Origin: Eubacteriales bacterium
GTDB taxonomy: Bacteria > Bacillota > Clostridia > Oscillospirales > CAG-272
DNA: 64,000 nt
Assembly: GCA_045660325.1 (NCBI GenBank)
Contig: JAZRDO010000019.1
Span: 496 to 64,495, forward strand
Reading direction: 5' to 3'
Shown: piece after piece, positions 2 through 55,955 of the stretch
Layout: every line of letters begins with the position of its first letter
Numbering within the stretch: position 1 is the first letter of the stretch
Program-made: the position numbers and the translations under genes
Notes under the pieces: generated by a model
The model's database searches: none
Told to the model about the DNA's origin: nothing
The model's input: only the letters and a program-made list of their open reading frames with translations

Positions 2-637
2 ATAATGGGAAAGCGGCAGCTTGGCGAGCTTGAGCTATCCGAGCTCATAACCACTCTTCTCTTCTCCGAGATAGCCACAACGCCCATAACCACCCCCGAC
101 TCACGCCTGGTTGATGCGATAGTGCCTATCGGGATCATAGCCGCGCTGGAAATCCTGCTTTCGCTCATAATGATAAAATTTCCAAAACTCAAACGAATAT
201 TTTCCTCAGGTCCGTCGGTAATTATTCAAAAGGGCAGGATCAACAAAAAGGAAATGCTCAAATCCCGTCTCACTCTCGACGAGCTTATATCTCAAATACG
301 TCAGTGCGGCATATTTGATCTCTGCGAGGTCGATTATGCAATTCTTGAGGAAAACGGCAAAATAACGGTCGTTCCCAAAGCAAGCCAACGCCCGCCGACA
401 GTTAACGATATTGGCATCACGGTCAATGACTCGGGTGTTATGCACATAATTGTTTCGGACGGCAAGATAAACGACTACAACCTCAGACTTGTGGGCAGAG
501 ACAGAAAGTGGCTCGAGTCCTTCCTCAAAAAGCAGGAGCTCAAGCCACAAAATGTTTTCTGTATGACGGTCGACGATGCAAAAAACACATTTATTCAAAC
601 CAAAAACGGTCGTGTGATCACAATATCGAACGACTGA
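2..637 (+). CDS. DUF421/YetF-family membrane protein, N-terminus probably runs off the window
   Basis: The frame stays open to the window edge. The segment GRINKKEMLKSRLTLDELISQIRQCGIFDLCEVDYAILEENGKITVVPK matches the conserved DUF421 core as I recall it. Confidence 0.7.
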   Translation: MMGKRQLGELELSELITTLLFSEIATTPITTPDSRLVDAIVPIGIIAALEILLSLIMIKFPKLKRIFSSGPSVIIQKGRINKKEMLKSRLTLDELISQIRQCGIFDLCEVDYAILEENGKITVVPKASQRPPTVNDIGITVNDSGVMHIIVSDGKINDYNLRLVGRDRKWLESFLKKQELKPQNVFCMTVDDAKNTFIQTKNGRVITISND

Positions 638-1309
638 TTAATTACCGTTTATTTTGTGCGCGCAAAAATCTCGCATAGGACATGCCTCGCACTTAGGAGA
701 ACGCGCCGAGCAGACGTCTCTACCGAACTGCACGATCCTATGGCAAAAATCGCTTTGCTGACTTTTGTCGATAAAGCCGTCCATTGTTCTCTCGACCTTC
801 AAGGGATCCTTGATGCTCTCGGAATAAAAGCCCAATCTGCCGCAAATTCTGATGCAGTGAGTATCGGCAACTATACCGCCCATTTTGTAAAGATCGCCAA
901 GCAAGAGATTCGCGATTTTTCTTCCCACACCACGAAATTCAAGCAGCTTCTCCATACTGTCGGGAACGATCCCACCGTAAAGGGAGACGAGCATCTCACA
1001 TTCACTCTTTATATCCGCCGCCTTTGTGTGAAAAAGACCGCAGGGGCGGATTATTTTTTCTATTTCCTCGATCGGCGCATCCGCCAACGCCTCAACCGTC
1101 GGGAAACTTATGAAAAGTTCCTCGCAGACGGTATTGACTCTCGCATCAGTGCATTGCGCGGAAAGACGGCCCATGACCATAAGCTTCCAGCCGTTCTCAA
1201 TTCCGCCGCCCCACATAAGCGCGCACTCCGCGTCGGGATATAATATTTCAAGCTCGGCGCAAGCGCGAGCCGCTATTTCCTTTTTAGCCTTTTTTGATAA
1301 TTCCTTCAT
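638..1309 (-). CDS. nth: endonuclease III
   Basis: HhH-GPD motif (FRGVGRKIANLLLGD) and C-terminal 4Fe-4S ligands C-x6-C-x2-C-x5-C (CSARSPKCEACPMRDFC). Confidence 0.9.
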   Translation of the reverse strand: MKELSKKAKKEIAARACAELEILYPDAECALMWGGGIENGWKLMVMGRLSAQCTDARVNTVCEELFISFPTVEALADAPIEEIEKIIRPCGLFHTKAADIKSECEMLVSLYGGIVPDSMEKLLEFRGVGRKIANLLLGDLYKMGGIVADTHCIRICGRLGFYSESIKDPLKVERTMDGFIDKSQQSDFCHRIVQFGRDVCSARSPKCEACPMRDFCAHKINGN

Positions 1310-1377
1310 TTTAACTCCGATAAGTTTCCTTCATTTATTATATTATACTATTTATTAAGATTTTTGTCAATTACAGA

Positions 1378-2691
1378 TTATGCCAATATGCGCTCTTCAA
1401 GGCACTCAAGATCGTAAGAATCAAGCGCACGGTCGCCATTTACATCCGCGTTGTATTTATATATAGCTCCGCTCTTATCGTGAATATAGAGGCTCAGCGC
1501 GGCAACATCAAGCACGCTTATCTCGCCGTCGCCGTCCGCATCCATACTCTTCGACATCACAAGCGTCTGCGCGTTATCCCCCGCTCTATCAAGCTCAAGA
1601 GTCAACCCGACCTTGCTTTCCTTTATACCGAAGACGTCGGCGGCGATACCGACAACCTCAGTTACAAAAAGGCTCCCGTCAATCTGCATTATCGAATTCT
1701 TGGTGTTAAAAAGCACCTTGTTTCCCGCGCATATGACCTCCACAAAGGAATTGGCGTAAAACCTACCCTCCGCCTTTTTCCATAGCCCATCGATACTATA
1801 TAAAAGCTCGGGCTCGCTCCCGTCGAGCTTATCAAAATAAATACCCCTCGCCACGTTGTCGGCAAAAACGAAGCCGTCCGCAAGACGCTCGTATTTATAC
1901 GGCACATTTCTCAAAGAAAGCCCTTTGTATGTTTCATCTGTACATTCAACGCCAAGCGGAATTATAGCGCCCTTGTGGCCACTCTCAACGATCTCGCGGT
2001 CAGTCAAAAGGAAATTCTTATGCGACACGCCGCCGTCAATATTATCCCAAGTAACATCAACGTGATACCACGCCCCGTCGAGTCTTATAACGTTCCAGAT
2101 GTGCATTATTTCGTTTGAATAGGCGTAGGTGCTCTCTATCCCCGCGCGGCGCAAAAGCTCCATATATGTAAGTGTAAACGCCTGACACGTGCCCCGACCG
2201 TCCCGAAGAAGCTCAAACATAGTATAGTTTTCAAGGCTATCATCATATATAAAATTATCGCACATATATTCGTGCAAAACAAGTGCCTTTGAAAAATCAC
2301 TCATGCTGTTATCAATAGAGAAAAGTATTTTTTCAAGCTCGCGATCGCAAAAAATCTTTATATTTTTAACTTCATTTTTATTATATATGTAGGTCGGAAT
2401 TAACTCCTTGACTGAACCGTTTTTGTCCGTACTGTAATAAAAGCTCTCCCCCACGTAGTAAAGCTCGGGATTTGTCTTTATCACGTAGTCAAGAGCCTCA
2501 AAAACAAAATCCTTGCCACACCCAAAGCCCGAAAGATCAATGCGCTCAAGCCCAAGATACAGGCTCTCGGCAATATAGCGCTCAACGTATCTGCGATCTA
2601 CGGTCTCGGATGCCCTCCCGTTAATAAGAAAAATCGCAAAAAATATACCGCACACAAGCAAAAGTCGAAGATACCGAAATACTGTTTTCAA
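1378..2691 (-). CDS. secreted transglutaminase-like domain protein with C-terminal type-I dockerin
   Basis: N-terminal hydrophobic signal/anchor. Transglutaminase-like core (GRGTCQAFTLTYMELLRRAGI...HIWNVIRLDGAWYHVDVTWD). Two Ca-binding dockerin repeats (DADGDGEISVLD and DVNGDRALDSYD). TTG start at 2691 preceded by AGGAG. Confidence 0.7.
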   Translation of the reverse strand: MKTVFRYLRLLLVCGIFFAIFLINGRASETVDRRYVERYIAESLYLGLERIDLSGFGCGKDFVFEALDYVIKTNPELYYVGESFYYSTDKNGSVKELIPTYIYNKNEVKNIKIFCDRELEKILFSIDNSMSDFSKALVLHEYMCDNFIYDDSLENYTMFELLRDGRGTCQAFTLTYMELLRRAGIESTYAYSNEIMHIWNVIRLDGAWYHVDVTWDNIDGGVSHKNFLLTDREIVESGHKGAIIPLGVECTDETYKGLSLRNVPYKYERLADGFVFADNVARGIYFDKLDGSEPELLYSIDGLWKKAEGRFYANSFVEVICAGNKVLFNTKNSIMQIDGSLFVTEVVGIAADVFGIKESKVGLTLELDRAGDNAQTLVMSKSMDADGDGEISVLDVAALSLYIHDKSGAIYKYNADVNGDRALDSYDLECLEERILA

Positions 2692-4675: not shown

Positions 4676-6328
4676 TTAAACAGTTTCTCTGGCAATAATA
4701 CGCGAGCCGATAGCCGCCTGAATCGGCACCTCAAAGAGCTGACGCGGGATATTTTCCTTGAGTCGCTCTGCGATCTTTCTAGCTCTGCCGTACGCCTTCT
4801 CCTCGTGAACGATAAAGGAAAGCGCGTCGACCTGCTCGCCATTGAGCATAAAGTCAAGCTTAACAAGCTTAGAGGGAACGTAACCCATAAGCTCGTAGTC
4901 AAGCGACGCGTAACCGCGAGAGCGGCTCTTGAGCGCATCAAAGAAGTCGTAAATAATTTCGTTGAGCGGAAGCTCATAATGAAGCTCAACTCTTGTGGAG
5001 TCAAGATATTTCATATCCACGAAAATACCGCGACGGTCCTGGCAAAGATCCATAAGACCGCCCACAAATTCGGTGGGAGTGATAATATTCGCCTTTACCA
5101 TAGGCTCTCTCGCCTCCTTGATATTGTCGGGGGACGGGAAGTTCGAGGGGTTGTCGATCGTGATCATCGAGTTATCCATAAGCGTTACCTCGTAAATAAC
5201 GCCAGGCGCGGTCGTGATAAGATCAAGATTGAATTCGCGCTCAAGTCTCTCCTCGATAATTTCCATGTGAAGAAGACCGAGGAAGCCACAACGGAAGCCA
5301 AAGCCCAAAGCAATAGAAGTTTCGGGCTCAAAGGTGAGAGCCGCATCGTTGAGTTGAAGCTTTTCAAGAGCGTCACGAAGATCGGGATATCTCGCACCGT
5401 CCGCAGGATAAATACCCGCAAATACCATAGGCTGAGCCGCCTTGAAGCCCGGAAGAGCCTCGACAGCAGGGTTGTCCTTCAAGGTAACCGTATCACCAAC
5501 TCGTGTGTCGCCAATGCTCTTGATTGATGCGGTAAGGTATCCTACCTCGCCCGCGCGGAGCGTGTCGCACTTGCGAAGGCCGAAGGCCTCCATCGTACCA
5601 ACCTCAACAACCTCAAATTCCTTGCCCGTGCTCATAAGCTTGATCGTGTCGCCAGCGGAAAGGCAGCCGTCGATAACTCTGATATTAACAACGACACCGA
5701 GATAGCTATCGTAGTAGGAGTCGAAAATAAGACACTTGAGAGGCGCATTCTCGTCGCCCGTAGGCGCAGGAATGTCGCGCACAACTGCCTCAAGAACGGA
5801 TTCAATATTAAGTCCCGTCTTGGCGGAAACCGCAGGACAGCCCTCGGCAGGAATGCCGATCTCGTCCTCAATTTCCCCTCTTACACGTTCAACGTCCGCA
5901 CTGGGAAGGTCTATTTTATTAATTACAGGTACTATCTCGAGTCCCGCGTCTACCGCGAGATAGGCGTTGGCAAGCGTCTGTGCCTCAATACCCTGTGTGG
6001 CGTCCACGACGAGGAGAGCGCCGTCACAAGCGTTGAGTGAACGGGAAACCTCGTAGTTAAAGTCAACGTGACCGGGAGTATCAATAAGATTGAAAACATA
6101 CTGCTCGCCATCGGGGGCAGTATAATCAAGCTTTACCGCTCGCGCCTTGATAGTGATTCCTCTCTCTTTTTCAAGATCCATATTGTCGAGAATCTGCTCC
6201 TCCATCTCGCGCTTCGAAACCGCCTGAGTGGACTCAAGGATTCTATCGGCAAGAGTGGACTTACCGTGGTCAATATGCGCGATAATCGAGAAGTTACGTA
6301 TTCTCTTCATTCTTTCATTTGTTGCCAT
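4676..6328 (-). CDS. lepA: elongation factor 4 (LepA), truncated by an in-frame TAA at 4676-4678
   Basis: G1 motif [15 protein letters not shown] and DTPGHVDF. The ORF ends ...[11 protein letters not shown], exactly where homologs continue K-A-(L/M)-RKDV. Confidence 0.9.
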
Positions 6329-7290: not shown

Positions 7291-7464
7291 CTCAAGCCTC
7301 CTCTCTTATGATTATCAAAGTATATTTTTGCCAAAAATTTGTTCATATAATATTATACAATTAAAATATTTTATTGTCAATAGAAAAAATATGCCGTATA
7401 AATTGCGCAATATAAAATTAAAGAATATTTTTCTAAAAAAAGACAAAATATTTTGAAAAAAGTA

Positions 7465-7493
7465 TTGACAAAGTGGATATAATTTGCTATAAT
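7465..7493 (+). promoter_or_regulatory. consensus sigma-A promoter of tRNA-Gln
   Basis: TTGACA (7465-7470), 17-nt spacer, TATAAT (7488-7493). It sits 18 nt upstream of the tRNA 5' end. Confidence 0.75.
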
Positions 7494-7511
7494 GATTGAG
7501 CGTTAAAAAAT

Positions 7512-7587
7512 TGGGGCATCGCCAAGCGGTAAGGCATCAGACTCTGACTCTGACATTACCGGGGTTCGAATCCCTGTGCCCCAGCCA
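7512..7587 (+). tRNA. tRNA-Gln (anticodon CUG), CCA encoded
   Basis: Acceptor TGGGGCA/TGCCCCA, D-arm GCCAAGCGGTAAGGC, anticodon arm TCAGA-CTCTGAC-TCTGA, T-arm CGGGG-TTCGAAT-CCCTG, discriminator G plus CCA. Close to E. coli tRNA-Gln. Confidence 0.95.
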
Positions 7588-7626
7588 AAAACAAAAAGAC
7601 CACTTTTAGTGGTCTTTTTTGTTTTT
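7588..7626. terminator. bidirectional terminator T1
   Basis: AGACCACT-TTT-AGTGGTCT hairpin flanked by an A-tract and a T-tract. Confidence 0.85.
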
Positions 7627-7640
7627 CGTTAGGAAAATCC

Positions 7641-7763
7641 GATTCGAACCCCCCGCGAGCCAATTTGCAAAGCAAATGGCGAGAATGTTTTGCGCTTATA
7701 TTATGCCGATTTAAATATATACGTAGGCGCAAAACTAGGTTCAGAATCCCTGTGCCCCAGCCA
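7641..7763 (+). repeat. tRNA-Gln-linked structured repeat unit A1
   Basis: Starts GATTCGAACCCCCC, the reverse complement of the tRNA-Gln T-arm. Contains hairpin CCAATTTGC-AAA-GCAAATGG and helix GTTTTGCGC(7687-7695)/GCGCAAAAC(7727-7735). Ends AGGTTCAGAATCCCTGTGCCCCAGCCA. Confidence 0.85.
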
Positions 7764-7802
7764 AAAACAAAAAGACCACTTTTAGTGGTCTTTTTTGTTT
7801 TT
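7764..7802. terminator. bidirectional terminator T2 (identical to T1)
   Basis: Same AGACCACT/AGTGGTCT hairpin at 7773-7791. Confidence 0.85.
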
Positions 7803-7816
7803 CGTTAGGAAAATCC

Positions 7817-7938
7817 GATTCGAACCCCCGCGAGCCAATTTGCAAAGCAAATGGCGAGAGACGTTTTGCACGTTGATTACTTTGAATTAAGATATACATT
7901 GGTGCAAAACTAGGTTCAGAATCCCTGTGCCCCAGCCA
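7817..7938 (+). repeat. tRNA-Gln-linked structured repeat unit A2
   Basis: Same architecture as A1. The helix is GTTTTGCAC(7863-7871)/GTGCAAAAC(7902-7910). Confidence 0.85.
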
Positions 7939-7979
7939 AAAAATAAAAGGAGTAGCAAAGGCTACTCCTTTTATTTTTT
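7939..7979. terminator. bidirectional terminator T3
   Basis: AAGGAGTAGC-AAAG-GCTACTCCTT hairpin with flanking A- and T-tracts. Confidence 0.85.
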
Positions 7980-7994
7980 CGTATGAGTAATATT

Positions 7995-8115
7995 ATTCGA
8001 ACCCCCGCGAGCCAATTTGCGTAGCAAATGGCGAGAGACGTTTTGCACGTTGATTACTTTGAATTAAGATATAAATTGGTGCAAAACTAGGTTCAGAATC
8101 CCTGTGCCCCAGCCA
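7995..8115 (+). repeat. tRNA-Gln-linked structured repeat unit A3
   Basis: Near-identical to A2. The hairpin loop changes from AAA to GTA. The helix is 8040-8048/8079-8087. Confidence 0.85.
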
Positions 8116-8155
8116 AAACAAAAGAGAGGAACTTTGTTCCTCTCTTTTTGTTTTG
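8116..8155. terminator. bidirectional terminator T4
   Basis: AGAGAGGAAC-TTT-GTTCCTCTCT hairpin with flanking A- and T-tracts. Confidence 0.85.
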
Positions 8156-8171
8156 CTTGAGACCGCTAGAT

Positions 8172-8295
8172 GATGAACCCCCGCAAACACTTGTGTTTGC
8201 TTGTTTGCGGCTCGATTACTTTAATTTATTATATGCTTTGCCGCAAACATAGGTTCAGAATCCCTGTGCGCCTACGGCTTGCAACGGTTCAAATC
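8172..8295. repeat. chimeric Gln/Arg junction unit (A4 on plus, B2 on minus)
   Basis: GATGAACCCCC, then hairpin GCAAACAC-TT-GTGTTTGC, then helix GTTTGCGG(8203-8210)/CCGCAAAC(8241-8248). This is followed by AGGTTCAGAATCCCTGTGCGCC and then TGCAACGGTTCAAATC, which is the Arg T-arm sequence in plus orientation. Confidence 0.8.
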
Positions 8296-8307
8296 ATAAA
8301 GGATAAA

Positions 8308-8345
8308 CCAAAAAGATGCGAGGGGTATTCCCCTCGCATTTTTTA
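8308..8345. terminator. bidirectional terminator T5
   Basis: ATGCGAGGGG-TATT-CCCCTCGCAT hairpin with flanking A- and T-tracts. Confidence 0.85.
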
Positions 8346-8543
8346 GCCTGCCCGAACGGATTTATGTTCGCCGCGTCAACTTCCGTTGACATCAAATGCG
8401 ACGAACGTTGAGAATGCACGCATTCTCACGTGTGCGCGGATGTCTAACACCGACATCCGCTACACAGTTTTGCGGTAAGGTATATCTATTCCAAAGCACT
8501 TCAAACCGCAAAACAGCACCCTTCGGGTGCAACGGTTCAAATC
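8346..8543 (-). repeat. tRNA-Arg-linked structured repeat unit B1
   Basis: On the minus strand it starts GATTTGAACCGTT, the reverse complement of the tRNA-Arg T-arm. It contains hairpin GCACCC-GAA-GGGTGC, a helix GTTTTGCGG/CCGCAAAAC, and three further hairpins. It ends in 18 nt (AAATCCGTTCGGGCAGGC) identical to the tRNA-Arg 3' end. Confidence 0.85.
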
Positions 8544-8554
8544 GTAAAGAATAA

Positions 8555-8595
8555 ACGAAAACAACAACAGGGGGCTTTGCCCCCTGTTGTTGTTT
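8555..8595. terminator. bidirectional terminator T6 (terminates tRNA-Arg)
   Basis: ACAACAACAGGGGGC-TTT-GCCCCCTGTTGTTGT, a 15-bp stem with flanking A- and T-tracts. Confidence 0.85.
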
Positions 8596-8672
8596 TGGCC
8601 TGCCCGAACGGATTTGAACCGTTGACCTTTAGAGTCGGAGTCTAACGCCCTATCCAGCTGTGCCACGGGCAG
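8596..8672 (-). tRNA. tRNA-Arg (anticodon CCG), CCA encoded
   Basis: Minus-strand acceptor CTGCCCG/CGGGCAG, D-loop AGCTGGATAG, anticodon arm TTAGA-CTCCGAC-TCTAA, T-arm AACGG-TTCAAAT-CCGTT, then G plus CCA. Confidence 0.9.
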
Positions 8673-8685
8673 ATATTACCTATAT

Positions 8686-8714
8686 ATTTTACCACAAAGA
8701 AAAGTATTTTTCAA
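8686..8714 (-). promoter_or_regulatory. sigma-A promoter of tRNA-Arg
   Basis: Minus strand reads TTGAAA, 17-nt spacer, TAAAAT, with a TG two nt upstream of the -10 element. Confidence 0.7.
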
Positions 8715-8744
8715 TAATTTTTTGCCGATAAAATCAAATAATTC

Positions 8745-8773
8745 AAAAACACCCCCGCGGATAACCGCGGGGG
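8745..8773 (-). terminator. terminator of the 460-aa lipoprotein gene
   Basis: CCCCCGCGG-ATAA-CCGCGGGGG hairpin followed by a T-run on the minus strand. Confidence 0.8.
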
Positions 8774-8793
8774 ATAACAGTTAATATTAAATA

Positions 8794-10176
8794 TTAGCCT
8801 GCTGTTGTAAGTGTAAGGTCTGTATCGTTAGCAACAACTTCGATTGTGAAGTCCTTAATACAGTACTTTTCACCTGTTGCATTGTTGATCATGAAGAGGT
8901 GAACTACGTCGCCGCTCTGAAGATCGGATGCGCCGAGCCAATACTTATAAATGGAAGCACCGGGAAGATTAGCGCCTGCAATCGCACCGCCGATACCGGG
9001 GTTAACGTGATGGTCAACTGCTGTACCGTTAACGGTCTTCATAAACTCACCGTTTCTGTAAACCTCGCCGCTGAAGGAAACGTTGGTGTAATCAAGTCCC
9101 TGGCCATAAAGTGCGCTGAAGCCTACCCAACCTTCAATTGTGAAGATGTGATCAGCAACCTCAATATCCTTCTGGAGAATTCTGAGGACCTTATTCCATG
9201 TATATGTAGGTGTGTTGTTACCGATGGAGTCACCGATTACAGAGCCTCTGTTCCAAACTCTAAGTCTGTCAGATCTACCTGCAGCGTCTGTAAGGTTGTG
9301 AGAGGACTTACATGTGTCGAAGGATACAATGTAAATGGGGTTCTGAGAATCCTGCATTGTAACGTGACCGAATTCATCTCTATCAGCTACGTAGATCTCG
9401 TCGCCTACGCAAACTGCTTCCATCTTGAAGATAGTCTGAACGTCGCCTTCAAGGTTCTTTCTACCGAACCATACAGTTACGTATTCTTCATCCTCGTATT
9501 CATCAAGGCTGATAGTAACGTCGTAGTTAGCGTTGAAGGGATTAAGATTCTTGATCTGAGCGATCTTAGCGAAGGGCTCCATAGCCGCATAATCCTGATC
9601 GGAGTAAGATGCCTTAGTAACCGCCTTCCATGTTGCGCCGTAGTCATCGGACCAAACCATATCGCCCTGACCACCCTCAAGGATAGCCCAGCCGGAGATG
9701 TTGATGCTTCTGCAGTAGTAGTCAAGCTGACCGTCAGCTACAGGAGGCCAATATACAGCGTTGGGGTTCTGTGTGTTAGGAGAAATTGTGTGGTAACCGT
9801 TAGCGATAGAGAACTTTCTACCGTCCTGACCGAGACCGTTGATAGCTGTCAATGTACCGATGTAAGGAATTGTTTCCTGTACAGGAGGAGGTGTGGGATC
9901 ATCTGTGCCACCACCGCTAGTTGTATCCGATGTTGTATCGGATGTTGTATCGGATGTTGTGTCGGATGTTGTGTCGGATGTTGTATCCGAGGTTGTGTCC
10001 TGAGGAAGGTCACCGGTATTGCCTTCGTCATCTGTATCCTTTGTTGTAGTAGGATCCTCTACGTTCTGAGAGGGATTCTCGGGGTTTGTAGGTGTCTCGC
10101 CGCCACCGTTGTTACAAGCCACGAAAATTACAGTAAACGCAAGAACAAGTGCCAATGCGATAAGTAATTTCTTCAT
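8794..10176 (-). CDS. secreted lipoprotein with (TSDTT)n linker, unknown function
   Basis: Lipobox MKKLLIALALVLAFTVIFVAC. Low-complexity Thr/Ser/Asp/Pro linker followed by a roughly 350-aa globular region. The start is taken as ATG 10176 rather than the upstream TTG. Confidence 0.6.
   Translation of the reverse strand: MKKLLIALALVLAFTVIFVACNNGGGETPTNPENPSQNVEDPTTTKDTDDEGNTGDLPQDTTSDTTSDTTSDTTSDTTSDTTSDTTSGGGTDDPTPPPVQETIPYIGTLTAINGLGQDGRKFSIANGYHTISPNTQNPNAVYWPPVADGQLDYYCRSINISGWAILEGGQGDMVWSDDYGATWKAVTKASYSDQDYAAMEPFAKIAQIKNLNPFNANYDVTISLDEYEDEEYVTVWFGRKNLEGDVQTIFKMEAVCVGDEIYVADRDEFGHVTMQDSQNPIYIVSFDTCKSSHNLTDAAGRSDRLRVWNRGSVIGDSIGNNTPTYTWNKVLRILQKDIEVADHIFTIEGWVGFSALYGQGLDYTNVSFSGEVYRNGEFMKTVNGTAVDHHVNPGIGGAIAGANLPGASIYKYWLGASDLQSGDVVHLFMINNATGEKYCIKDFTIEVVANDTDLTLTTAG
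9920..9999. repeat. tandem 15-bp coding repeat (about 5-6 copies) encoding TSDTT
   Basis: GGATGTTGT(A/G)TC(G/C)-type period visible directly in 9920-9999. Confidence 0.8.
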
Positions 10177-10247
10177 GATTATCAAATCCTTTCAAAATGA
10201 TTTTTCCTTATATGCACAGTAAAAACTTTGCATATTACCTTATGATA

Positions 10248-10387: not shown

Positions 10388-13300
10388 TTAGTTCCAGTAC
10401 ATACCGAAGAGAGTATCGTAGTTACCGCCGAGACCCTGCCAGCCTGTAACGATAGCGATGGACTCGATATCGATTGTGATGCCGGGAGCGAATCTAACGA
10501 TCATCATAGAGTGACCTGCGGGAACCTTCCAACCGTCCTGAACGGAGATTGCCCAACCGTTAGCAGATGTACCGATCCAGCCTCTACCACATGCGTTACC
10601 GCCTGCTGCGAGACAACCGCCGCAAGTACCGTAACAAATGTTAACCTGGTTAGCGCTGGGAGAGTGGTTTCTGTACTTCATAAGTACGTAGTTACCTACG
10701 TAATCGTTAGTGTTCCAACCGCCATTGAGGGAGTGAACGCCTGTGAAGAGAAGGAAGAGACGACCACCGTCACCGCCGTTAGCGTTAGCTGTGAGTCTGA
10801 TGTACTCGCCGTTACCGTCGTTGCGGATCTCTGCATCGAAGCCCCAAGCTGCGCCGCCGAGGTTCTTCCAAGATGTGTAGAGCTGCTGAGCATCCCAACG
10901 ACCGTTGCTTACAACACCTGCATCAAGAAGCTCAACGTCCTTGGATGCAAGAACACCACCGTTGATGCCACCGTTGTGAAGCTTAATTGTGTATGTGCCC
11001 TCTGTAGCGAGCTTAGCGAGTTCAGGATTTACAACTGTTACGCCTGTGCCACCGTTAGGAGCGAAGCCTGTGGATGTAGCTGTTGCTGTGTAGTACATAA
11101 CGAGATCGCTGCCCTTATAGAGAGCTACTACGTCAGTTGTGCTTGCTGTAACAGCTGTAACATCAATATTACCGCCAAGACCGATCTTACCGTCAGCATC
11201 ACCGAGGTTAACGCCTACAGTCTGTCTTGTAAGAGTGAATGTGTCAAGGAGAATGATTTCGCCGTTTGTCTGGCTCTTGTAGAATACTTCTACGTTGTAA
11301 GCCTGGTTAAGAGCGAAGTCAGCGGGGAGCAAGTATGCAAAGTCGAACTGTGCTACTGTAGCGTCGATCATTGTCTTTGTGGATCCCCAAGAGATATCGT
11401 AGTTGCCAACCTTGATACCGAGGTTAGCTGCGGGAAGCTCTACGTTAGATGTAAGACGAGCAGCAAGGTTGAGCTGGTAGTCGGAGTCAACGAGAGTTAC
11501 TGTGTTAAGAAGAACGGGGCTTGTGGACTGAGCTGTGAACGCAGGAACTCTGTTACCTACGAGGGTGTTCTCAGCGGAAATACCAACGAATGTGAAGTTG
11601 GAAATTGTAGAACCGTTTTCTTCCTTTGTGATGTAGTTACCGTTGGGGTTAGCAACAGCCATTGCATCAGCATATGTATCGTAGAACTCAATGGGAGCAA
11701 CGTCGAGCCAGTCGCCGTTAGCTGCGCCGATTGCGTTAGCATCGAACATTACCCAGTCAAGAGTCTTGATTGTGGATACGTCGATTGCACCGTTGTTGGA
11801 AAGGTCAACGATGATATATCTCCAAGAGTTATCAAGGATGATGTTGAGCCAGTTAGCGTTGTACTTCTTACCGCCAATGTTCTGTGTACCGTTTACGTTG
11901 AGGTAGAAGTCATAGTTTGCGCCGTAGCCGGAGCCGTTACCTCTGAACTTGATGAGCATGAACTTCTTAACGTTAAGACCTTCAGCGTCATTGAAGAGAG
12001 AAAGTGTGGGCTTAGCTGTACCTGCTGCGAATGTGTAGTGAACGTAGTCACCAACGATTGTAGCGTTTACGTTTGTCTTGTCAGCCATGTTACCAGCAGC
12101 TGCAAGGAAGTTAACGTCGAGCTTGTTGGGGTTAGCCTTTGTAACTACAAGCTTCTTTACGTTGAGAACCTGAACGAGCTCAGTTCTGCCTGTAGCTTCA
12201 TCAACTGCTACTACGCCTGCAATTCTGAGGTCAATTGTCTTGCCCTCGTACTTTGCAAGATCCATAAGGATCACGAAGCTGCCGTCCTCAGCCATTACAG
12301 CCTCATTAGCTGTAAGTGTCTTCCAGGACATACCGCCGTCGAGAGAGTAAACGAGCTTCTGCACGCCGCCTTCAACGACAACCTTACCCTGAAGCTTGAG
12401 CATGAAGTTGTTATAGAATCTACCGTTCCAGTTGATAACTGTAACGCCGTTATTTTCGTTTGTGTTAAGGAACTTACCGGGAGCGCCGTATTCGCCTGTA
12501 CCGTTAATGTTGTCTAATGTTGTTGTGTGGCTTTTGTCAGAGTCTACGTAAACGCTGGGCATTGTGAATTCACCCTTTGTTTCAGCATACTCGATAGCGT
12601 CTGCCTTGTTGTTGAAGAACGCGATGTATTCAACGTCAATAGCGGAGCCCTCTACGAAGCCGTTGAAGAGAACGTACTTAAGTGTATCGATTGCAGCACC
12701 GCCGAGCATATCGTACTCAACGCCGTTGAGGTCGATCTGGTTCTTGCGGAGGTCGATGTTGAGAAGTGTCCACTTGCCAACAGTTGCTTCATTATTATAG
12801 TTGATTACGTTGTCGCCGGATACGCTTGCGAAGAAGTCAACACCGTTGATAACGAACTTACCGTCGCGGTTGCCGCCGAAGTCCTTAAGTGTTGCTGCTG
12901 CACGGTACTTAATGGAGATAACGTCTGCGAAGTTGTCGCCGAGGAATTCAAGATATGCATCAAGAGCCTCTGCTGTGAGTGTTACGTAAGAGCCGTCTTC
13001 GCTTGCTGTTACGTCAACGTTGTTAAAGAGAACCTTTGCATCCTCTTCAGCTGTGAGATCTTCTACTGTGTAGAGGAGCTCGGGAGCCTTCTTAGGAAGA
13101 ACTGTCTCATCTGTTGTGCCACATCTGCCGCAAGTTGCGGATGCCTTACCTTCAGCAGCGAACGTAGGAGCCAATGTCTCAACCCATACGTACTTGTGAC
13201 CGAGAGCGGGAATTACTGCATAGTCAGTACCGTTTGTGTCGCCACATACTGTACATACGCTACCAGCTACGAAGCCGTCCTCTGTACATGTTGCGTCCTT

Positions 13301-13999
13301 AGCAGCAACGTCTGTGTAGTCGTGACCTGTAGCAGCCTTAAGAACTGCATCACAGTCAACGCACACGGAATCTTCAGTACATGTAGCATCACCGGATGCT
13401 GTGTGACCTGTAGCGGGAATTGTGAACTCGCCTGTTACGTCACAGTTTACACAAGTACCGAACTTGATACCGTCAACTGTACATGTAGCGGGCTTAAGAA
13501 TGTTCCATTCGGAGCCTTCAGCAACTGCGTGACCGAGAGCAGGTGTCTCGAGAGTTGCCTTGTCGCCACACTTGGAGCATGTTGCTTCGCTAAGACCTGC
13601 TTCATCACATGTAGGAGCAGTTACTACTACGAAGTCGCCCATTACGCAAGCGCCGTCAGCAGACTTTTCTGTCTTACCGCACTTTGTGCACTCTCTAACG
13701 AGTCTGTCCTTGTCAGAGCAAAGCTTACCGTCAACCTTTGTCCATTCGCCAAAGGAGCAAGCGTCTGCCTTTGTTTCCTTTGCACCGCACTTTGTACAAA
13801 CTCTGTAGAGTCTGTTAGCGTCAGCGCATTCTACGGACGCATCGGTTGACCAATCGCCGTATTCATGTTCGCACTCTGTAGCAGGGGGTGTTACAGGGGC
13901 TGTTGTACCGGGCTCGGGAGTATTGTCGTTACCCTTACAAGCAGCAAAAGTAAGCACCAAAACAAGAGCCAGTACCAAGCAAATAAGTAATTTTTTCAT
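10388..13999 (-). CDS. large secreted lipoprotein: N-terminal Cys-rich repeats plus repeated beta-sandwich-like modules
   Basis: Lipobox MKKLLICLVLALVLVLTFAAC. Repeated modules of the form C-T-x-x-G...C-x-x-CG...(P)A(L/T)GH. The long Asn/Gly/Val-rich C-terminal region resembles carbohydrate-binding or adhesin proteins. Start taken as ATG 13999. Confidence 0.65.
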   Translation of the reverse strand: MKKLLICLVLALVLVLTFAACKGNDNTPEPGTTAPVTPPATECEHEYGDWSTDASVECADANRLYRVCTKCGAKETKADACSFGEWTKVDGKLCSDKDRLVRECTKCGKTEKSADGACVMGDFVVVTAPTCDEAGLSEATCSKCGDKATLETPALGHAVAEGSEWNILKPATCTVDGIKFGTCVNCDVTGEFTIPATGHTASGDATCTEDSVCVDCDAVLKAATGHDYTDVAAKDATCTEDGFVAGSVCTVCGDTNGTDYAVIPALGHKYVWVETLAPTFAAEGKASATCGRCGTTDETVLPKKAPELLYTVEDLTAEEDAKVLFNNVDVTASEDGSYVTLTAEALDAYLEFLGDNFADVISIKYRAAATLKDFGGNRDGKFVINGVDFFASVSGDNVINYNNEATVGKWTLLNIDLRKNQIDLNGVEYDMLGGAAIDTLKYVLFNGFVEGSAIDVEYIAFFNNKADAIEYAETKGEFTMPSVYVDSDKSHTTTLDNINGTGEYGAPGKFLNTNENNGVTVINWNGRFYNNFMLKLQGKVVVEGGVQKLVYSLDGGMSWKTLTANEAVMAEDGSFVILMDLAKYEGKTIDLRIAGVVAVDEATGRTELVQVLNVKKLVVTKANPNKLDVNFLAAAGNMADKTNVNATIVGDYVHYTFAAGTAKPTLSLFNDAEGLNVKKFMLIKFRGNGSGYGANYDFYLNVNGTQNIGGKKYNANWLNIILDNSWRYIIVDLSNNGAIDVSTIKTLDWVMFDANAIGAANGDWLDVAPIEFYDTYADAMAVANPNGNYITKEENGSTISNFTFVGISAENTLVGNRVPAFTAQSTSPVLLNTVTLVDSDYQLNLAARLTSNVELPAANLGIKVGNYDISWGSTKTMIDATVAQFDFAYLLPADFALNQAYNVEVFYKSQTNGEIILLDTFTLTRQTVGVNLGDADGKIGLGGNIDVTAVTASTTDVVALYKGSDLVMYYTATATSTGFAPNGGTGVTVVNPELAKLATEGTYTIKLHNGGINGGVLASKDVELLDAGVVSNGRWDAQQLYTSWKNLGGAAWGFDAEIRNDGNGEYIRLTANANGGDGGRLFLLFTGVHSLNGGWNTNDYVGNYVLMKYRNHSPSANQVNICYGTCGGCLAAGGNACGRGWIGTSANGWAISVQDGWKVPAGHSMMIVRFAPGITIDIESIAIVTGWQGLGGNYDTLFGMYWN

Positions 14000-14064
14000 G
14001 ATTACAAAAAAATCCTTTCTCAAACTTTCTCACAAACGAAAAGTATAGTCTGTGTATTCAGTTT

Positions 14065-26133: not shown

Positions 26134-26265
26134 AAAAATAAGCCCTCGGATTTCCCGAGGGCAGAAATGCTTTGTATGCACTCATCTCTCAGGAATTAGC
26201 ACCTTGCAATATGCAGGTTGCCGGGCTTCACAGGGCCAGTCCCTCCGCCACTCTTGATAAGGATT
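26134..26265 (-). promoter_or_regulatory. SAM-I (S-box) riboswitch with terminator, leader of metK
   Basis: Minus strand reads CTTATCAAGAGTGGCGGAGGGACTGGCCCTGTGAAGCCCGGCAACC...AAGGTGCTAATTCCTG, followed by hairpin GCCCTCGG-GAAAT-CCGAGGGC and a T-run. Confidence 0.85.
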
Positions 26266-27875: not shown

Positions 27876-28052
27876 AAAAAAATCCCCTTTCTAATAAGGG
27901 GGGATACAAAAGCCAATTATGGCATACTTGTTTTTCTCATCCGGACTTTACCGTCGGTCGAGGAATCACACCCCGTCGGCATCAAAAGATGTTCGCAGAC
28001 TACGCCGTAGCGATTACTGCCGGTATGGAATTTCACCAATCCCCAAATCAAG
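27876..28052 (-). promoter_or_regulatory. FMN riboswitch (RFN element)
   Basis: Minus strand reads GGGGATTGGTGAAATTCCATACCGGCAGTAATCGC...GATGCCGACGGGGTGTGATTCC...GACCGACGGTAAAGTCCGGATGAGAAAAAC. A hairpin plus T-run lies just before the RBS. Confidence 0.85.
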
Positions 28053-28065
28053 TTTTAAAATATTC

Positions 28066-28100: not shown

Positions 28101-28133
28101 CGGTTATTTGTATATATGATTTATATATTCAAA

Positions 28134-29339
28134 TTATTCAATGATCTCGGAAACAACGCCGGAACCAACTGTTCTACCACCCTCACGGATAGCGAAACGG
28201 AGACCCTTTTCACAAGCGATGGGCTTGATAAGCTCAACTGTCATGTTTACGTTGTCACCAGGACGGCACATTTCTGTACCTTCGGGAAGCTCGATAACAC
28301 CTGTTACGTCAGTTGTTCTGAAGTAGAACTGAGGTCTGTAACCAGAAAGGAAGGGCTTAGAACGGCCACCTTCTTTTTCTGTAAGAACGTATACCTGACC
28401 TACGAACTTTGTGTGGGGGTGTACGGAACCGGGCTTTGCAAGAACCTGACCTCTTTCGATCTCATCCTTAGCTACGCCACGGAGAAGAGCACCGATGTTG
28501 TCACCAGCCTCAGCCTGGGGAAGAAGCTTGTGGAACATTTCAACACCTGTAACTGTTGTGGACTTCTTTTCTTCTTCAAGACCAACGATTTCAACAACGT
28601 CGCCAACCTTAACTGTACCTCTTTCAACTCTACCTGTAGCAACTGTACCACGACCAGAGATGGAGAATACGTCCTCGACAGGCATAAGGAAGTCGAGGTC
28701 TGCCTTACGCTCGGGAGTAGGAATGTATGCGTCAACTTCAGCCATGAGCTCGAGAATGCAAGCATACTCGGGAGCGTTGATATCATTGTTTGTGGACTCG
28801 AGAGCGTCACGAGCAGAACCACGAACGATAGGAAGATCGTCGCCGGGGAAGTCGTAGGAAGAGAGAAGGTCTCTGATTTCCATTTCTACGAGATCAAGAA
28901 GCTCATCGTCATCAACGAGGTCCTTCTTGTTCATGAATACAACGATTGCAGGAACGCCTACCTGACGTGCGAGAAGAACGTGCTCTCTTGTCTGTGCGAG
29001 AGGGCCGTCTGTAGCAGCAACAACGAGGATAGCGCCGTCCATCTGAGCAGCACCGGTGATCATGTTCTTAACGTAGTCGGCGTGGCCGGGGCAGTCAACG
29101 TGAGCGTAGTGACGGTTGTCTGTCTCGTACTCAACGTGTCTTGTGTTAATTGTGATACCTCTTGCTCTTTCTTCGGGAGCGTTGTCGATCTGGTCGTAAG
29201 CCATGAATTCAACGTTACCGTTTGCAAGACCAAGAACCTTAGTGATAGCAGCAGTTGTTGTTGTCTTACCATGGGCAACGTGACCGATAGTACCAATGTT
29301 TACGTGGGGCTTTCTTCTTTCAAATGTAGCCTTTGCCAT
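28134..29339 (-). CDS. tuf: elongation factor Tu
   Basis: [23 protein letters not shown]. Confidence 0.98.
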
Positions 29340-29413
29340 TTTGAATTTCCTCCATAAATTATGAGTATTTTTTTGTTTTTTGTTTTTTTGTTTTTTATAT
29401 AACTAATTTTAAA

Positions 29414-31540: not shown

Positions 31541-31558
31541 ATTGAACTCTCCTTGAAA

Positions 31559-32029
31559 TTAATATCTGTAATGAGCAAAAGCCTTGTTTGCCTCTGCCAT
31601 TCTGTGTGTTTCTTCCTTCTTCTTGAAAGCTCCGCCCATGCTATTCTTAGCATCGATAATTTCTGCGGCGAGCTTTTCAGCCATTGTTCTTTCGCTTCTG
31701 TTTCTTGTATAGTTTACAAGCCAACGGAGAGCGAGAGTCTGCTGTCTTTCACTTCTTACTTCCATAGGAACCTGATATGTGGAACCACCTACACGGCGAG
31801 CCTTAACTTCAAGCTGGGGCTTAAGGTTCTCAAGAGCTTCCTGGAATACTTCGAGGGCATTCTGACCAACCTTTGCTTCTACGATTGCAAATGCATCGTA
31901 AACGATTGTCTGAGCTACGCCCTTCTTGCCATCATACATAATGTTGTTGATAAGCTTTGTTACAAGCTTGGATCCGTACATAGGATCCGGCAATACATCT
32001 CTTTTGGATATACGACCTCTTCTCGGCAC
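31559..32029 (-). CDS. rpsG: 30S ribosomal protein S7
   Basis: Starts (GTG) [19 protein letters not shown], preceded by GAAGGAGGG. Ends ...KAFAHYRY. Confidence 0.95.
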
Positions 32030-32179
32030 TGTACTTCCCTCCTTCATCAAATTTAAAAATGAAATCATTGGTACTCAAAAGCAAACTTCTGTATGTGCGC
32101 CTCGTTAATATAAACATTCTTGGATTAACTTGGACGAACTTAATTGCTTTATTTTTACCTTTAAATAATAAGAAGTATA

Positions 32180-46643: not shown

Positions 46644-47255
46644 TCAATTATTGAAATATGCGTCGGGCATACTGTAAAAATATACGATCTTCACGCTTCT
46701 TACCCACTCAAGCTCATATAAAGCGGAGATGCCCTCATACTCGGAATAAAAGTCTTGAAGAACCTCGGAAAGATTTCCGTCGTTATGAACGTAATCGAAA
46801 TGCAGACCCTGAACTCCGTCAAGAAGAGAGAAATATTCATCGCTCAATTTGTCGCTGTAAGCGTCGAAAAACGCCTGATTCAGCGCCTTACTGCTCTTGC
46901 TTTCACACGAAAGATACCACTCCTCTTCCTTTGCGAAGCCGTAGTCACATATTACCGTGACGAGCAACGAGGAGGAAAACCAGAAGGAATCCGCATATTC
47001 GCCCGACTGCTTAAAGGAATAATGCTCGTCCTGATACTGCACCTCAAGGCTTACCTTCTTTTCATTCTCAGCCTCACTCTGAAGAAAAGCAAACAGCTCC
47101 TTTATTTCTTCTCTTCCCTCGCGAAGAACGGGATCGGTATTTTCTCCGGGAGCCTCGGGGTTAGAATTCTGCGCACCACCGGGATTTTTACACGACACAA
47201 GGCAGGAGCCAAGAATCGCGCACAAAAGTAAAATCAAAATTAATCTTTTTATCAT
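46644..47255 (-). CDS. hypothetical lipoprotein
   Basis: Lipobox LGSCLVSC after MIKRLILILLLCAI. No family recognised. Confidence 0.55.
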   Translation of the reverse strand: MIKRLILILLLCAILGSCLVSCKNPGGAQNSNPEAPGENTDPVLREGREEIKELFAFLQSEAENEKKVSLEVQYQDEHYSFKQSGEYADSFWFSSSLLVTVICDYGFAKEEEWYLSCESKSSKALNQAFFDAYSDKLSDEYFSLLDGVQGLHFDYVHNDGNLSEVLQDFYSEYEGISALYELEWVRSVKIVYFYSMPDAYFNN

Positions 47256-55945: not shown

Positions 55946-55955
55946 CCTTTTTATC

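Follow-up and report, generated by a model that had tools for sequence, protein, structure and literature searches.

The window analysed here, a stretch of 64,000 nucleotides from a Eubacteriales bacterium, contains two convergent arrays of hairpin-forming units, one downstream of a tRNA-Gln gene and the other downstream of a tRNA-Arg gene, and the units begin and end with copies of the T-arm of the adjacent tRNA. This raises the question of whether the units are functional RNAs, as suggested in an earlier note on this DNA, or DNA elements that use the tRNA gene as a target. Taken together, they look like a tRNA-targeting DNA element of an undescribed kind rather than a regulatory RNA.

Units downstream of the tRNA-Gln and tRNA-Arg genes

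The tRNA-Gln(CTG) gene (7512..7587, plus strand) is preceded by a sigma-70 promoter with the consensus TTGACA-17-TATAAT (7465..7493, plus strand) and followed by a bidirectional intrinsic terminator T1 (7587..7625, stem 7593-7619). The 5' half of its T-arm together with the loop reads GGGGTTCGAATC (7561-7572). Unit A1 (7641..7763, plus strand) consists of an inverted T-arm copy (7641-7652), hairpins h1 (about 7659-7680) and h2 (7687-7735), a T-loop copy with an extra A, GGTTCAGAATC (7738-7748), and a copy of the tRNA 3' end up to CCA (7749-7763), in this order. It is followed by a second copy of T1 (7763..7801), and positions 7744-7829 are 100% identical to positions 7568-7653, forming an 86-nt direct repeat within the window. 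Unit A2 (7817..7939, plus strand; 5' motif 7817-7828, h2 7863-7910, 3' motif 7913-7923) is chimeric: it matches the A1 period exactly on the left, up to h1, and A3 with 99% identity from h2 rightward. The next terminator, T2 (GGAGTAGC...GCTACTCC, 7938..7979), is of a type also observed ahead of A3-like bodies in three other loci, L043, L051 and L042. Unit A3 (7994..8116, plus strand) has the 5' motif TATTCGAACCCC (7994-8005), h2 at 8040-8087, the 3' motif at 8090-8100 and then the tail. Terminator T3 (8111..8157, stem 8120-8148) comes next, and the same type precedes an A4-like unit in L043. The fourth unit of the array, A4 (8169..8273, plus strand; 5' motif GATGATGAACC, h1 8183-8200, h2 8203-8248, 3' motif 8252-8262), is the most degraded Gln unit, with a decayed tail CCCTGTGCGCC.

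On the minus strand, the tRNA-Arg(CCG) gene (8596..8672, T-loop TTCAAAT) has a promoter at 8714-8686 and a bidirectional terminator at 8558..8596. Unit B1 (8346..8543, minus strand), of the long Arg type, contains the 5' motif (8543-8530), h1 (8530-8516), h2 (8514-8467), three more hairpins and a tail AAATCCGTTCGGGCAGGC copying the tRNA-Arg 3' end (8363-8346, minus strand). It lacks the GGTTCA half of the 3' motif, and its body has homologues in the long Gln-type units of L043 and L051. An intrinsic terminator (8316..8339, minus strand) follows. The stub B2 (8282..8295, minus strand), whose sole remnant is the 5' inverted T-arm copy, abuts the tail of A4 at the meeting point of the two arrays.

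Units A1-A3 had been recognised in the earlier note; the degraded unit at 8169-8273 and the Arg-type stub at 8295-8282 have to be added to this set. The rule proposed there, that each unit opens with the exact reverse complement of the T-arm of the adjacent tRNA, holds for both arrays. The Gln motif GATTCGAACCCC, complementary to 7561-7572, has exact copies at 7641 and 7817 and a copy with one mismatch at 7994. The Arg motif GATTTGAACCGTTG, complementary to 8611-8624, is found on the minus strand at 8543-8530 and again at 8295-8282. There are four matches to the Gln motif versus 0.43 expected (four were reached in none of 100 shuffles) and three matches to the Arg motif versus 0.03 expected.

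Distribution and tracking of T-loop variants

Scanning of genomes yielded 38 loci, 36 of them from 26 bins assigned to Clostridia, Eubacteriales, Oscillospiraceae or Lachnospiraceae, and 59 copies were recovered by a profile search, in 26 genome bins of uncultured Clostridia from the gut and rumen. The family is associated exclusively with tRNA genes. Where the flank is present, the copies have the orientation of the tRNA, and their distance downstream of it is 50-70 nt or a multiple of the array period. The host gene is the last tRNA gene of its transcription unit, and ten isoacceptors are represented. No tRNA-remote copy was found among the 59, of which 13 lie at contig ends with the tRNA side missing. 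Four flagged exceptions are explained by an IS insertion in one case and, in the other three, all from L018, by a tRNA-Ser-like gene that ARAGORN did not call. Several loci may occur in one genome, e.g. four in bin JAZSOQ.

The end motifs track the adjoining tRNA across three T-loop variants, as expected from the earlier note: GAATC/GATTC in many loci, AAATC/GATTT in the Arg array of the window, and GAGTC/ACTC.GAACC behind tRNA-Arg(ACG) in L006 and L007. In these latter two loci, the 5' motif agrees with the 3' motif of the unit itself and not with the tRNA. The bodies of the long Gln-type and Arg-type units are homologous, yet their end motifs fit the local tRNA in 14 of 14 cases. One body type is spread over different tRNA loci: members of one subfamily, 80-91% identical, were found behind tRNA-Thr, tRNA-Pro and tRNA-Arg, also within one bin, with unrelated terminators. 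The core TGCG...CGCA of the h1/h2 bodies is invariant across many genera. The minimal members, in L029 and L003, consist of an inverted and a direct T-arm copy, that is, a bare 12-bp hairpin. The minimal form of L029 belongs to relatives of Agathobacter.

Predicted structure and possible RNA function

The minimum-energy structure computed by RNAfold for A1-A3 is a three-way junction, in agreement with the fold proposed in the earlier note. The predicted closing helix GAUUCGAACC/GGUUC(A)GAAUC has 10 bp with one bulged A, or 9 bp in A3, which begins with T. The 3' tail is left essentially unpaired. The fold z-scores of A1, A2 and A3 are -3.9, -3.4 and -2.1, respectively. Across the family, the stem has one bulged A in 10-12 bp, and the terminal structure varies between a 3-nt loop in L029 and five hairpins in B1. 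If the upstream tRNA is included in folding, the 5' motif pairs better with the T-arm of the tRNA (12 bp, unbulged) than with the 3' motif of the unit.

Such a unit could be a small structured RNA with a free tRNA-like 3' tail, pairing with the cognate T-arm or mimicking the tRNA 3' end, and serving in regulation, as a decoy or in repair. Indeed, the predicted fold is stable and is conserved in 39 of 39 full-length family members, the h2 and closing helices covary, and the 5' motif of the L006 lineage has an inserted T that faces the extra A exactly, so that the extra base is paired there. Moreover, within the window each tail is followed by a terminator, and the 5' motif is an exact antisense of 12-14 nt to the T-arm. 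However, all units lie behind an efficient-looking terminator and have no conserved promoter. The h1/h2 stems are almost purely Watson-Crick, with 3.4% of G-U pairs, and the two strands fold equally well (sense in 19 cases versus antisense in 20, p = 0.46). In many loci the tail is decayed or missing while the hairpin body is intact; the left arm of the terminator is deleted in the His arrays; the minimal members are merely bare hairpins; the 5' motif in L006 and L007 does not follow the tRNA; no T-arm-like hairpin is maintained; and B1 of the window has no full 3' motif. The only Rfam matches, whether with gathering thresholds or with E up to 10 over the region 7300-8800, are the two tRNAs. 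Thus the anatomy, the T-arm tracking and the closing helix described in the earlier note stand, but the antisense or tRNA-like function of an RNA is poorly supported: nothing specifically favours it, and we consider it quite unlikely. On the other hand, the Watson-Crick palindromes without strand bias, the terminators on both sides, the unconserved promoter and the breaking of contigs at arrays fit an element acting on the level of DNA.

Several other candidate features of the units were considered and rejected. A promoter in the h2 loop (TTGCAC-17-TAAGAT) is plausible in the window and is not conserved in other subfamilies. The 26-codon ORF in B1 is neither preceded by a ribosome-binding site nor conserved. 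The candidate T-arm-like hairpin, with its loop of 8 nt, is poorly paired in the window units and variable elsewhere. The core of a hammerhead or another small ribozyme is absent, again with no Rfam match. Finally, an acceptor-like stem formed by the post-terminator sequence and the tail, which could make a substrate for RNase P, is present in the His loci and absent in the window.

A proposed cassette model

We suggest that the units are the hairpin portions of small gene-less DNA cassettes of about 90-260 bp, which build up head-to-tail arrays at the 3' ends of terminal tRNA genes and are moved by recombination in the T-loop. We assign this reading a probability of roughly 0.45. The cassette starts with GAATCC, the 3' half of the T-loop, and continues with the tRNA 3' strand to CCA, an intrinsic terminator, a short spacer, the inverted T-arm (GATTCGAACC...), zero to five perfect hairpins, and GGTTCA. 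All module boundaries fall at the centre of the T-loop palindrome, TTC|GAA. Of 62 junctions GGTTC-N-GAATCC or GGTTC-N-GAGTCC, 61 have A as the base N. The tRNA-Arg tail of B1 begins at the same T-loop position despite the missing GGTTCA, and an inverted cassette fragment in L042 ends exactly at |GAATCC. In the tRNA-Gln gene itself, the proposed junction lies between GGTTC and GAATCC.

As no recombinase was found in the 8-kb flanks of the arrays or in the window, the mechanism of mobility is inferred. The cassette would insert at TTC|GAA of the tRNA gene, and the tRNA would stay intact because the cassette brings a new 3' end and terminator. The displaced old 3' end would move downstream, behind the diagnostic junction GGTTC-A-GAATCC. 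The movement would be a site-specific recombination at the T-loop, carried out by an enzyme acting in trans. When folded, the terminal inverted repeat mimics the duplex sequence of the T-loop, apart from one additional base, and this repeat, as single-stranded or cruciform DNA, is probably the recombination site. One may go further and suggest a new hairpin-based site-specific recombination system, in which the T-loop, conserved universally among tRNAs, plays the role of attI in integrons, each cassette carries a folded T-loop-mimicking site with one extrahelical base and a replacement tRNA 3' end, and a trans-acting recombinase performs insertion at TTC|GAA; this more specific proposal is tentative and rather doubtful.

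No dedicated machinery would be required if template switching or fold-back at the T-arm and terminator hairpins during replication generated forward-inverted-forward copies of the tRNA 3' region, which were then expanded and homogenised by unequal crossing-over and hairpin-templated correction. Such an origin is suggested by the period itself, a large imperfect palindrome (T-loop, acceptor strand, terminator, degenerate acceptor complement, inverted T-loop), and by the minimal units in L029 and L003 with their two T-arm copies of opposite orientation. Intra-strand correction could keep the Watson-Crick arms perfect, and A2 is a recombinant of A1 and A3. However, a switch at the T-arm stem would yield one T-loop copy and not two, and the conserved h1/h2 bodies with the TGCG...CGCA core, the occurrence of these bodies at different tRNAs with unrelated terminators, and the near-invariant extra A are left unexplained. 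We regard template switching as an unlikely alternative to the cassettes.

Variation between loci

PgsA homologues led to four informative loci, L043 and L050-L052; the other contigs end at the repeats or have paralogous contexts. An exact look-up of the flanking PgsA protein retrieved no record. Copy number differs between species and strains. The number of units downstream of tRNA-Gln is zero in L050, one in L051, two in L043 and four in the window, and that downstream of tRNA-His varies from one to three. L051 and L052 have identical PgsA, are identical in sequence through the CCA of the tRNA, and diverge immediately after it. The linkages T3->A4 and T2->A3 are observed both in the window and in L043, with the order permuted. 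The L043 array has a clean end, made up of a tail and a different terminator, after which no inverted motif appears. Next to the tRNA in L009 and L006 is a newer terminator type, with the older one in a distal position. In many loci the tails are identical to the cognate tRNA, and distal copies decay. The permuted order and the strain differences could also arise by unequal crossing-over and deletion among tandem repeats. Among the loci compared, there was no filled and empty pair from one species with both boundaries resolved.

Some observations count against the cassette model. In the His arrays, terminators and bodies are not strictly linked. Several loci with one unit have a pristine body and a tail that can no longer be recognised, which requires either selection on the body or a route of insertion without displacement of the tail. 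A clean gradient of tail age by rank was considered and rejected, as single-unit loci often have fully decayed tails. Intact bodies beside tails decayed to noise suggest purifying selection or continual renewal, and, together with the location of units behind terminal tRNAs only, could mean that the units are cis-acting DNA or RNA elements of the host, either stacked terminators or insulators behind strongly transcribed tRNA genes or decoy T-loop sites diverting integrases. Such a role is very unlikely, given that copy number is highly variable, the close relative with L050 has no units, distal copies decay, and no observation ties the three-way junction to termination.

Search for a putative mobilising enzyme

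The cassettes contain no genes. Within 8 kb of the arrays there is no recurrent integrase, transposase, reverse transcriptase or HUH enzyme, and none was found among the Pfam-scanned genes of the 64-kb window. These results, like the lack of matches in viral contigs and in phage and plasmid records described below, also count against the cassette model. Duplication of a tRNA 3' end flanking inserted DNA is the classic signature of integration into tRNA genes, and the T-loop is a known target of integrases. One possibility is then that larger integrase-encoding elements (prophages, ICEs, IMEs) integrated in the T-loop and later lost their interior, and that the units are what is left of their attachment sites. 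The tRNA 3' end is indeed duplicated here, with the junction within the T-loop. However, the unit length of about 100 nt and the three-way junction are uniform in 59 copies at ten tRNAs, an architecture that independent deletions would not produce. Besides, no integrase gene or larger occupant with the ends GATTCGAACC...GGTTCAGAATCC was found, and the units are unmatched in 2.9 million viral contigs and in phage and plasmid records: the viral contigs gave no matches to the tail motif or to the full end-to-end pattern, and the phage and plasmid records gave none to the full period. The sole large insert, in L007, was considered as an autonomous partner and rejected; it is an unrelated IS that has duplicated the terminator hairpin. 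Remnants of larger elements are thus improbable as the source of the units.

Comparison with known systems

Head-to-tail arrays of imperfect palindromes are also characteristic of integron attC sites and CALIN, which are attC clusters devoid of an integrase gene. The folded stem with an extrahelical base and a terminal structure varying from 3 nt to more than 80 nt is similar in part, though in L006 the extra base is paired. There, too, the newest cassette adjoins a fixed primary site, and an integrase gene may be missing nearby. However, the R''/R' consensus (RYYYAAC/GTTRRRY) is absent here, with the unit ends GATTCGAAC and GTTCAGA each breaking the core-box consensus at two positions. Unlike attC, the units have no unpaired central spacer and their stems are strand-symmetric save for the single extra base; the cassettes have no ORF, whereas attC cassettes normally have one; and the primary site is the tRNA T-loop, not attI. 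No intI gene was observed in the 8-kb flanks or the window, and Rfam gave no match.

Elements targeting tRNA genes (prophages, ICEs and IMEs with tyrosine integrases, and integrase-less CIMEs) likewise restore the tRNA 3' end by the insert, leave a displaced partial copy downstream, have the junction in the T-loop and accrete in tandem at one tRNA. As in these elements, the tRNA here is left intact, and direct repeats of its 3' end lie on both sides of the insert. On the other hand, neither an integrase of their own, within the 8-kb flanks and the window, nor, in view of the uniform architecture, descent from an integrase-bearing element is observed for the cassettes. They differ further in their size of 90-260 bp, the absence of genes, the uniform hairpin layout, the inverted T-arm copy within the cassette and the near-invariant one-base insertion at the junction.

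REP/REPIN-BIME elements and IS200/IS605-derived PATEs are also short, gene-less and hairpin-forming, and often lie just after genes. Their mobilisation in trans via single-stranded DNA, with a bulged stem base as a recognition feature, resembles what is suggested here for the cassettes. However, they are dispersed genome-wide, are not bound to tRNA genes and have no duplicated target 3' end, whereas the terminal repeats of the cassettes are copies of the target, and no RAYT or TnpA gene was found in the 8-kb flanks or the window. IS200/IS605-derived elements and TnpB omega RNA modules have similar subterminal hairpins at their two ends and no terminal inverted repeat. Here, in contrast, the units have terminal inverted repeats, h1, h2 and the terminators share no sequence relationship, Rfam gave no hits up to E = 10, and no TnpA or TnpB was observed in the same flanks and window. 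As for MITEs, the terminal inverted repeats GATTCGAACC and GGTTC(A)GAATC are present in 39 of 39 aligned copies, though the search pattern demanded them; the GAGTC-type ends were found without that constraint. Target-site duplications of 2-15 bp were not found in the flanks, where the repeat is instead 20-86 nt of the tRNA 3' end and terminator. The attP site of CTX-type filamentous phages, a substrate of XerCD, is similar in logic only: a single-stranded hairpin recreates the duplex chromosomal target, but this target is dif and not a tRNA gene, the phage genome carries genes, and the sequences are unrelated.

The family appears to be a variety of tRNA-targeting integrative or miniature elements. 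No description of it was found in the literature, also under the literal motif GGTTCAGAATCC. If mobile, the cassettes would be smaller than any known element that inserts into a tRNA gene and repairs it at the same time. Their movement would imply a recombinase recognising the near-universal GGTTCGAATCC, which would be of interest for site-specific integration. The pseudo-tRNA 3' ends derived from cassettes can mislead programs that search for boundaries of prophages and genomic islands. As older copies lie further from the tRNA, the arrays are a natural record of successive events at one locus.

A scan of metagenomes with the conserved h4 hairpin of the long units produced a single match, an unrelated terminator. 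Metagenome contigs break at tRNA cassette arrays, and the cassette family explains why rumen and gut Clostridia assemblies are interrupted at particular tRNA genes.

Palindromic arrays behind two tRNA genes

The genes for tRNA-Gln(CTG) (7512-7587, plus strand) and tRNA-Arg(CCG) (8596-8672, minus strand), both called by ARAGORN and Rfam, form a convergent pair in the window. The former is followed by four tandem units, A1 to A4, spaced at about 175 nt, and the latter, on the minus strand, by one long unit, B1, and one stub, B2. A unit begins with an inverted copy of the T-arm (the 5' motif), continues through two hairpins, h1 and h2, to a T-loop copy with an extra A (the 3' motif), and ends with a tail resembling the tRNA 3' end. 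The earlier note described the 5' ends as antisense to the T-arm of the cognate tRNA, and this is exact in both arrays: GATTCGAACCCC is the reverse complement of positions 7561-7572 in tRNA-Gln, and GATTTGAACCGTTG is that of the T-arm of tRNA-Arg. Both motifs far exceed chance in the window, with counts of four at no more than one mismatch versus 0.43 expected for GATTCGAACCCC and three versus 0.03 expected for GATTTGAACCGTTG. The three-way junction described there is reproduced by RNAfold, with a closing helix of 10 bp (9 bp in A3) interrupted by a single bulged A, two enclosed hairpins and a free tail. When the upstream tRNA is included, the 5' motif pairs preferentially with the tRNA's own T-arm, forming 12 bp without a bulge and enclosing the terminator.

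A family of arrays in uncultured Clostridia

These sequence observations hold and extend to a wider family. The pattern GATTCGAACC-N75-105-GGTTCAGAATCC matched 38 loci in 185,579 species genomes: 34 with full-size units, two with pairs of minimal units, and two chance matches in Chloroflexia. The 36 genuine loci are spread over 26 bins of uncultured Clostridia; the source records list samples from the gut or rumen of yak, buffalo, cattle and goat as well as a human-gut collection. With a profile derived from 39 units, 59 copies were found in all sequences retrieved. Directly downstream of a tRNA gene and in the same orientation lie 42 of these; another 13 are at contig ends where the tRNA side is absent. 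The four copies flagged as lacking a tRNA are all accounted for, one by an intervening IS insertion and three by a tRNA-Ser-like gene not called by ARAGORN.

The carriers are Thr-CGT, His-GTG, Pro-CGG, Arg-CCG, Arg-ACG, Ala-GGC, Ala-CGC, Ser-TGA, Lys-TTT and Gln-CTG. The carrier is always the final tRNA of its transcription unit; mid-operon tRNAs have no units. The inverted T-arm motif lies 50-67 nt downstream of the tRNA end (29 tRNAs), and GGTTCAGAATCC is followed by a copy of the 3' end of that same tRNA, often perfect through CCA. Palindromic cassette arrays at tRNA 3' ends are thus a real and widespread family. It is apparently undescribed so far, as full-text literature searches, including one with the literal motif, found no description of it.

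The end motifs follow the T-arm of the adjacent tRNA for three T-loop variants. GAATC is paired with the end motif GATTC at many loci, AAATC with GATTT in the Arg array of the window, and GAGTC with ACTC(T/G)GAACC behind tRNA-Arg(ACG) at two loci, L006 and L007, whose units were recovered by the profile and not by the end-forcing pattern. The base inserted at the junction is A in 61 of 62 cases. In L006, the extra A of the 3' motif directly faces a T inserted in the 5' motif, resulting in a helix without a bulge. Of all the evidence, this compensatory insertion speaks best for selection, or templating, of pairing between the two unit ends, and it argues against the 5' end being retained as a tRNA antisense.

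Structure of the units

All 39 units share the same fold, a closing helix with h1 (8-11 bp, loop of 3-4 nt) and h2 (8-10 bp, loop of about 30 nt). Covariation in h2 is strong, one pair being A-U in 17 units, G-C in 13, U-A in three and C-G in two, and the h2 core TGCG...CGCA is invariant. The smallest members, behind tRNA-Lys in Agathobacter (L029) and at L003, have a bare terminal hairpin with a 3-nt loop; long ones (B1, L043, L051) have five hairpins. Thus the T-loop-derived inverted repeat is the constant part, and the interior is a variable terminal structure.

G-U pairs in RNA helices usually occur on one strand only. Here the stems are almost purely Watson-Crick, with G-U in 23 of 673 pairs, and the body folds as well in the sense as in the antisense orientation (19 versus 20, Wilcoxon p = 0.46). 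This is the appearance of DNA palindromes.

The function proposed in the earlier note, a structured RNA antisense to the tRNA T-arm with a tRNA-like 3' end, finds no specific support in these data and is quite unlikely, although read-through transcripts must exist at some level. Intrinsic terminators, most of them bidirectional, flank each unit at a distance of only 10-20 nt from terminator to unit, and the promoter-like hexamers in the h2 loops of the window are not conserved in other subfamilies. The stems have no strand bias, the tails decay, the left terminator arm is deleted in the His-type arrays, and the T-arm-like hairpin is not maintained. The Rfam search matched no family to the units, and the minimal members leave no room for the proposed junction.

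Modular anatomy and turnover

Successive periods of the window array are modular mosaics. The A1 and A2 periods match completely from the tail up to and including h1 but diverge in h2, and A2 and A3 are 99% identical over h1, h2 and the tail but have different preceding terminators; A2 is therefore a recombinant. At many loci the terminator palindrome runs outward; the terminator is followed by a degenerate complement of the 3' strand of the acceptor and then by an inverted T-loop. An array can be read as two alternating palindromic modules, a tRNA-specific one (GAATCC, 3' strand, terminator, its complement, GGATTC) and a generic one (GAACC, hairpins, GGTTC(A)), with all boundaries at the centre of the T-loop hexamer, TTC/GAA. 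In agreement with this, the tRNA-Arg tail of B1 starts at this position despite the missing GGTTCA, and the boundary of an inverted cassette fragment in L042 falls exactly before GAATCC. In internal periods of His-type arrays (L009, L014, L036), the left terminator arm is deleted directly after ...CACCC(C), at, or close to, the 3' end of the mature tRNA, with a varying number of C residues and with the right arm and spacer retained.

One subfamily of bodies, 80-91% identical with the ends excluded, occurs behind tRNA-Thr, tRNA-Pro and tRNA-Arg, including at three loci of a single bin, and the terminators and spacers there are unrelated. The long Gln-type and Arg-type bodies are homologous, yet in their end motifs 14 of 14 positions agree with the local tRNA. 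Several changes would have to be coordinated for this, and hence the ends are either re-templated locally or selected.

Orthologous tRNA-Gln loci with common pgsA-lepA-hemN synteny contain no unit (L050), one (L051), two (L043) or four (the window). In L050, the tRNA has an ordinary terminator, and a weak ATTCGAACC remnant lies about 170 nt downstream. L051 and L052 have the same encoded PgsA and do not differ up to and including the tRNA CCA, after which terminators and cassettes differ at once, a strain-level polymorphism. Terminator and body remain linked between the window and L043 (terminator T3 followed by A4, T2 by A3) in permuted order, and the array in L043 closes neatly with a tail and a different terminator, after which no inverted motif follows. 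In L009 and L006, an older terminator type, common to relatives, is distal, and a different one adjoins the tRNA. Degradation is greater in distal copies.

The favoured explanation is that a cassette, consisting of a tRNA 3' end, a terminator and a unit body, inserts at the T-loop of the tRNA. It would supply a new tRNA 3' end and terminator, and older cassettes would be displaced downstream. The observations on spread and turnover of the cassettes together fit such insertion, and we put the probability that the cassettes are mobile at roughly 0.45. Tandem repeats that undergo unequal crossing-over and deletion can also give rise to the L051/L052 difference, the terminator-body linkage in permuted order, and the older terminators and degraded copies in distal position. 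At several single-unit loci the tail is unrecognisable, with the body and both end motifs perfect; either the body is selected or renewed, or some insertions displace no tail.

The 8-kb flanks contain no recurrent recombinase, transposase or reverse transcriptase, and no recombinase was found among the Pfam-scanned genes of the window, a set of origin-proximal housekeeping genes that includes mnmG, rsmG, parA, jag, yidC, mnmE, metK and mreB. No genes were found inside cassettes, and nothing similar to the units in viral, phage and plasmid collections. Given these searches, the crossing-over alternative and the lost tails, the mechanism of mobility is one that we infer. That the arrays mark a new hairpin-based recombination system is doubtful.

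Comparison with known systems

Integron attC sites and CALIN arrays are the closest in how the system works: their imperfect palindromes fold, carry an extrahelical base and vary in terminal structure, and their newest cassette adjoins a fixed site. However, the cassettes behind tRNA genes have no attC core boxes, central spacer or ORFs, and no integron integrase was found. As with tRNA-targeting integrative elements, the entered tRNA gene would be repaired, but the cassette contains no integrase gene. The cassettes therefore belong to neither class as defined. They resemble MITEs in their terminal inverted repeats but lack a short target-site duplication; REPINs and IS200/IS605-derived palindromic elements are similar in size and hairpin content but differ from the cassettes, which are confined to tRNA 3' ends and have ends copied from the target. 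We rate the arrays as a variant of tRNA-targeting integrative or miniature elements.

Other observations

In L007, a 498-aa DDE transposase ORF (407-1903, minus strand), which by eye appears IS1182/IS5-like, lies inside the tRNA-Pro terminator, so that tRNA and unit are separated. A complete copy of the terminator hairpin (gaggggatagcctttaggctatcccctc) stands on either side of it, in flanks at about 380-410 and 1975-2010. In L042 (1-190; also L041), from a relative with a 90% identical PgsA, an inverted cassette fragment directly adjoins the promoter of pgsA. It contains the tail, a T2-like terminator, tATTCGAACC and the h1 start, and its boundary is exactly before GAATCCCTG, at the T-loop junction. 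Short-read metagenome contigs with the pgsA orthologue (L039-L042, L052, L053, L059-L061) end within or just past tRNA-Gln; assemblies break at these repeat arrays.

A second, unrelated mini-array was observed downstream of the last unit in L014 (about 5150-5440, minus strand), L034 (about 1000-1280, minus strand), L016, L036 and L037. Its 3-5 short hairpins have CTTCG-type loops and are spaced by GTGATAT(T) or GATTCCATAC, with a terminator at the end. The gene beyond it, on the side away from the units, resembles, by eye, one for a sigma factor. The mini-array may be a leader or another repeat family.

The lepA ORF of the window (4676-6328, minus strand) encodes 550 aa versus 606 aa in the orthologues of L043, L050 and L051, and its C-terminus appears truncated or frameshifted near 4676-5004. 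A Pfam scan of 28116-29357, 29480-32056, 46644-47321 and 55872-57464 matched no family. Two large minus-strand ORFs with signal-peptide-like N-termini lie beside the tRNA-Arg promoter, one (8794-10185) with a (TSDT)n linker and the other (10388-14023) with Cys-rich repeats. Riboswitches above the Rfam gathering threshold are an FMN riboswitch (27925-28054, minus strand), a SAM riboswitch upstream of metK (26179-26263, minus strand) and a ZTP riboswitch upstream of the IMP cyclohydrolase/AICARFT genes (50473-50555, plus strand).
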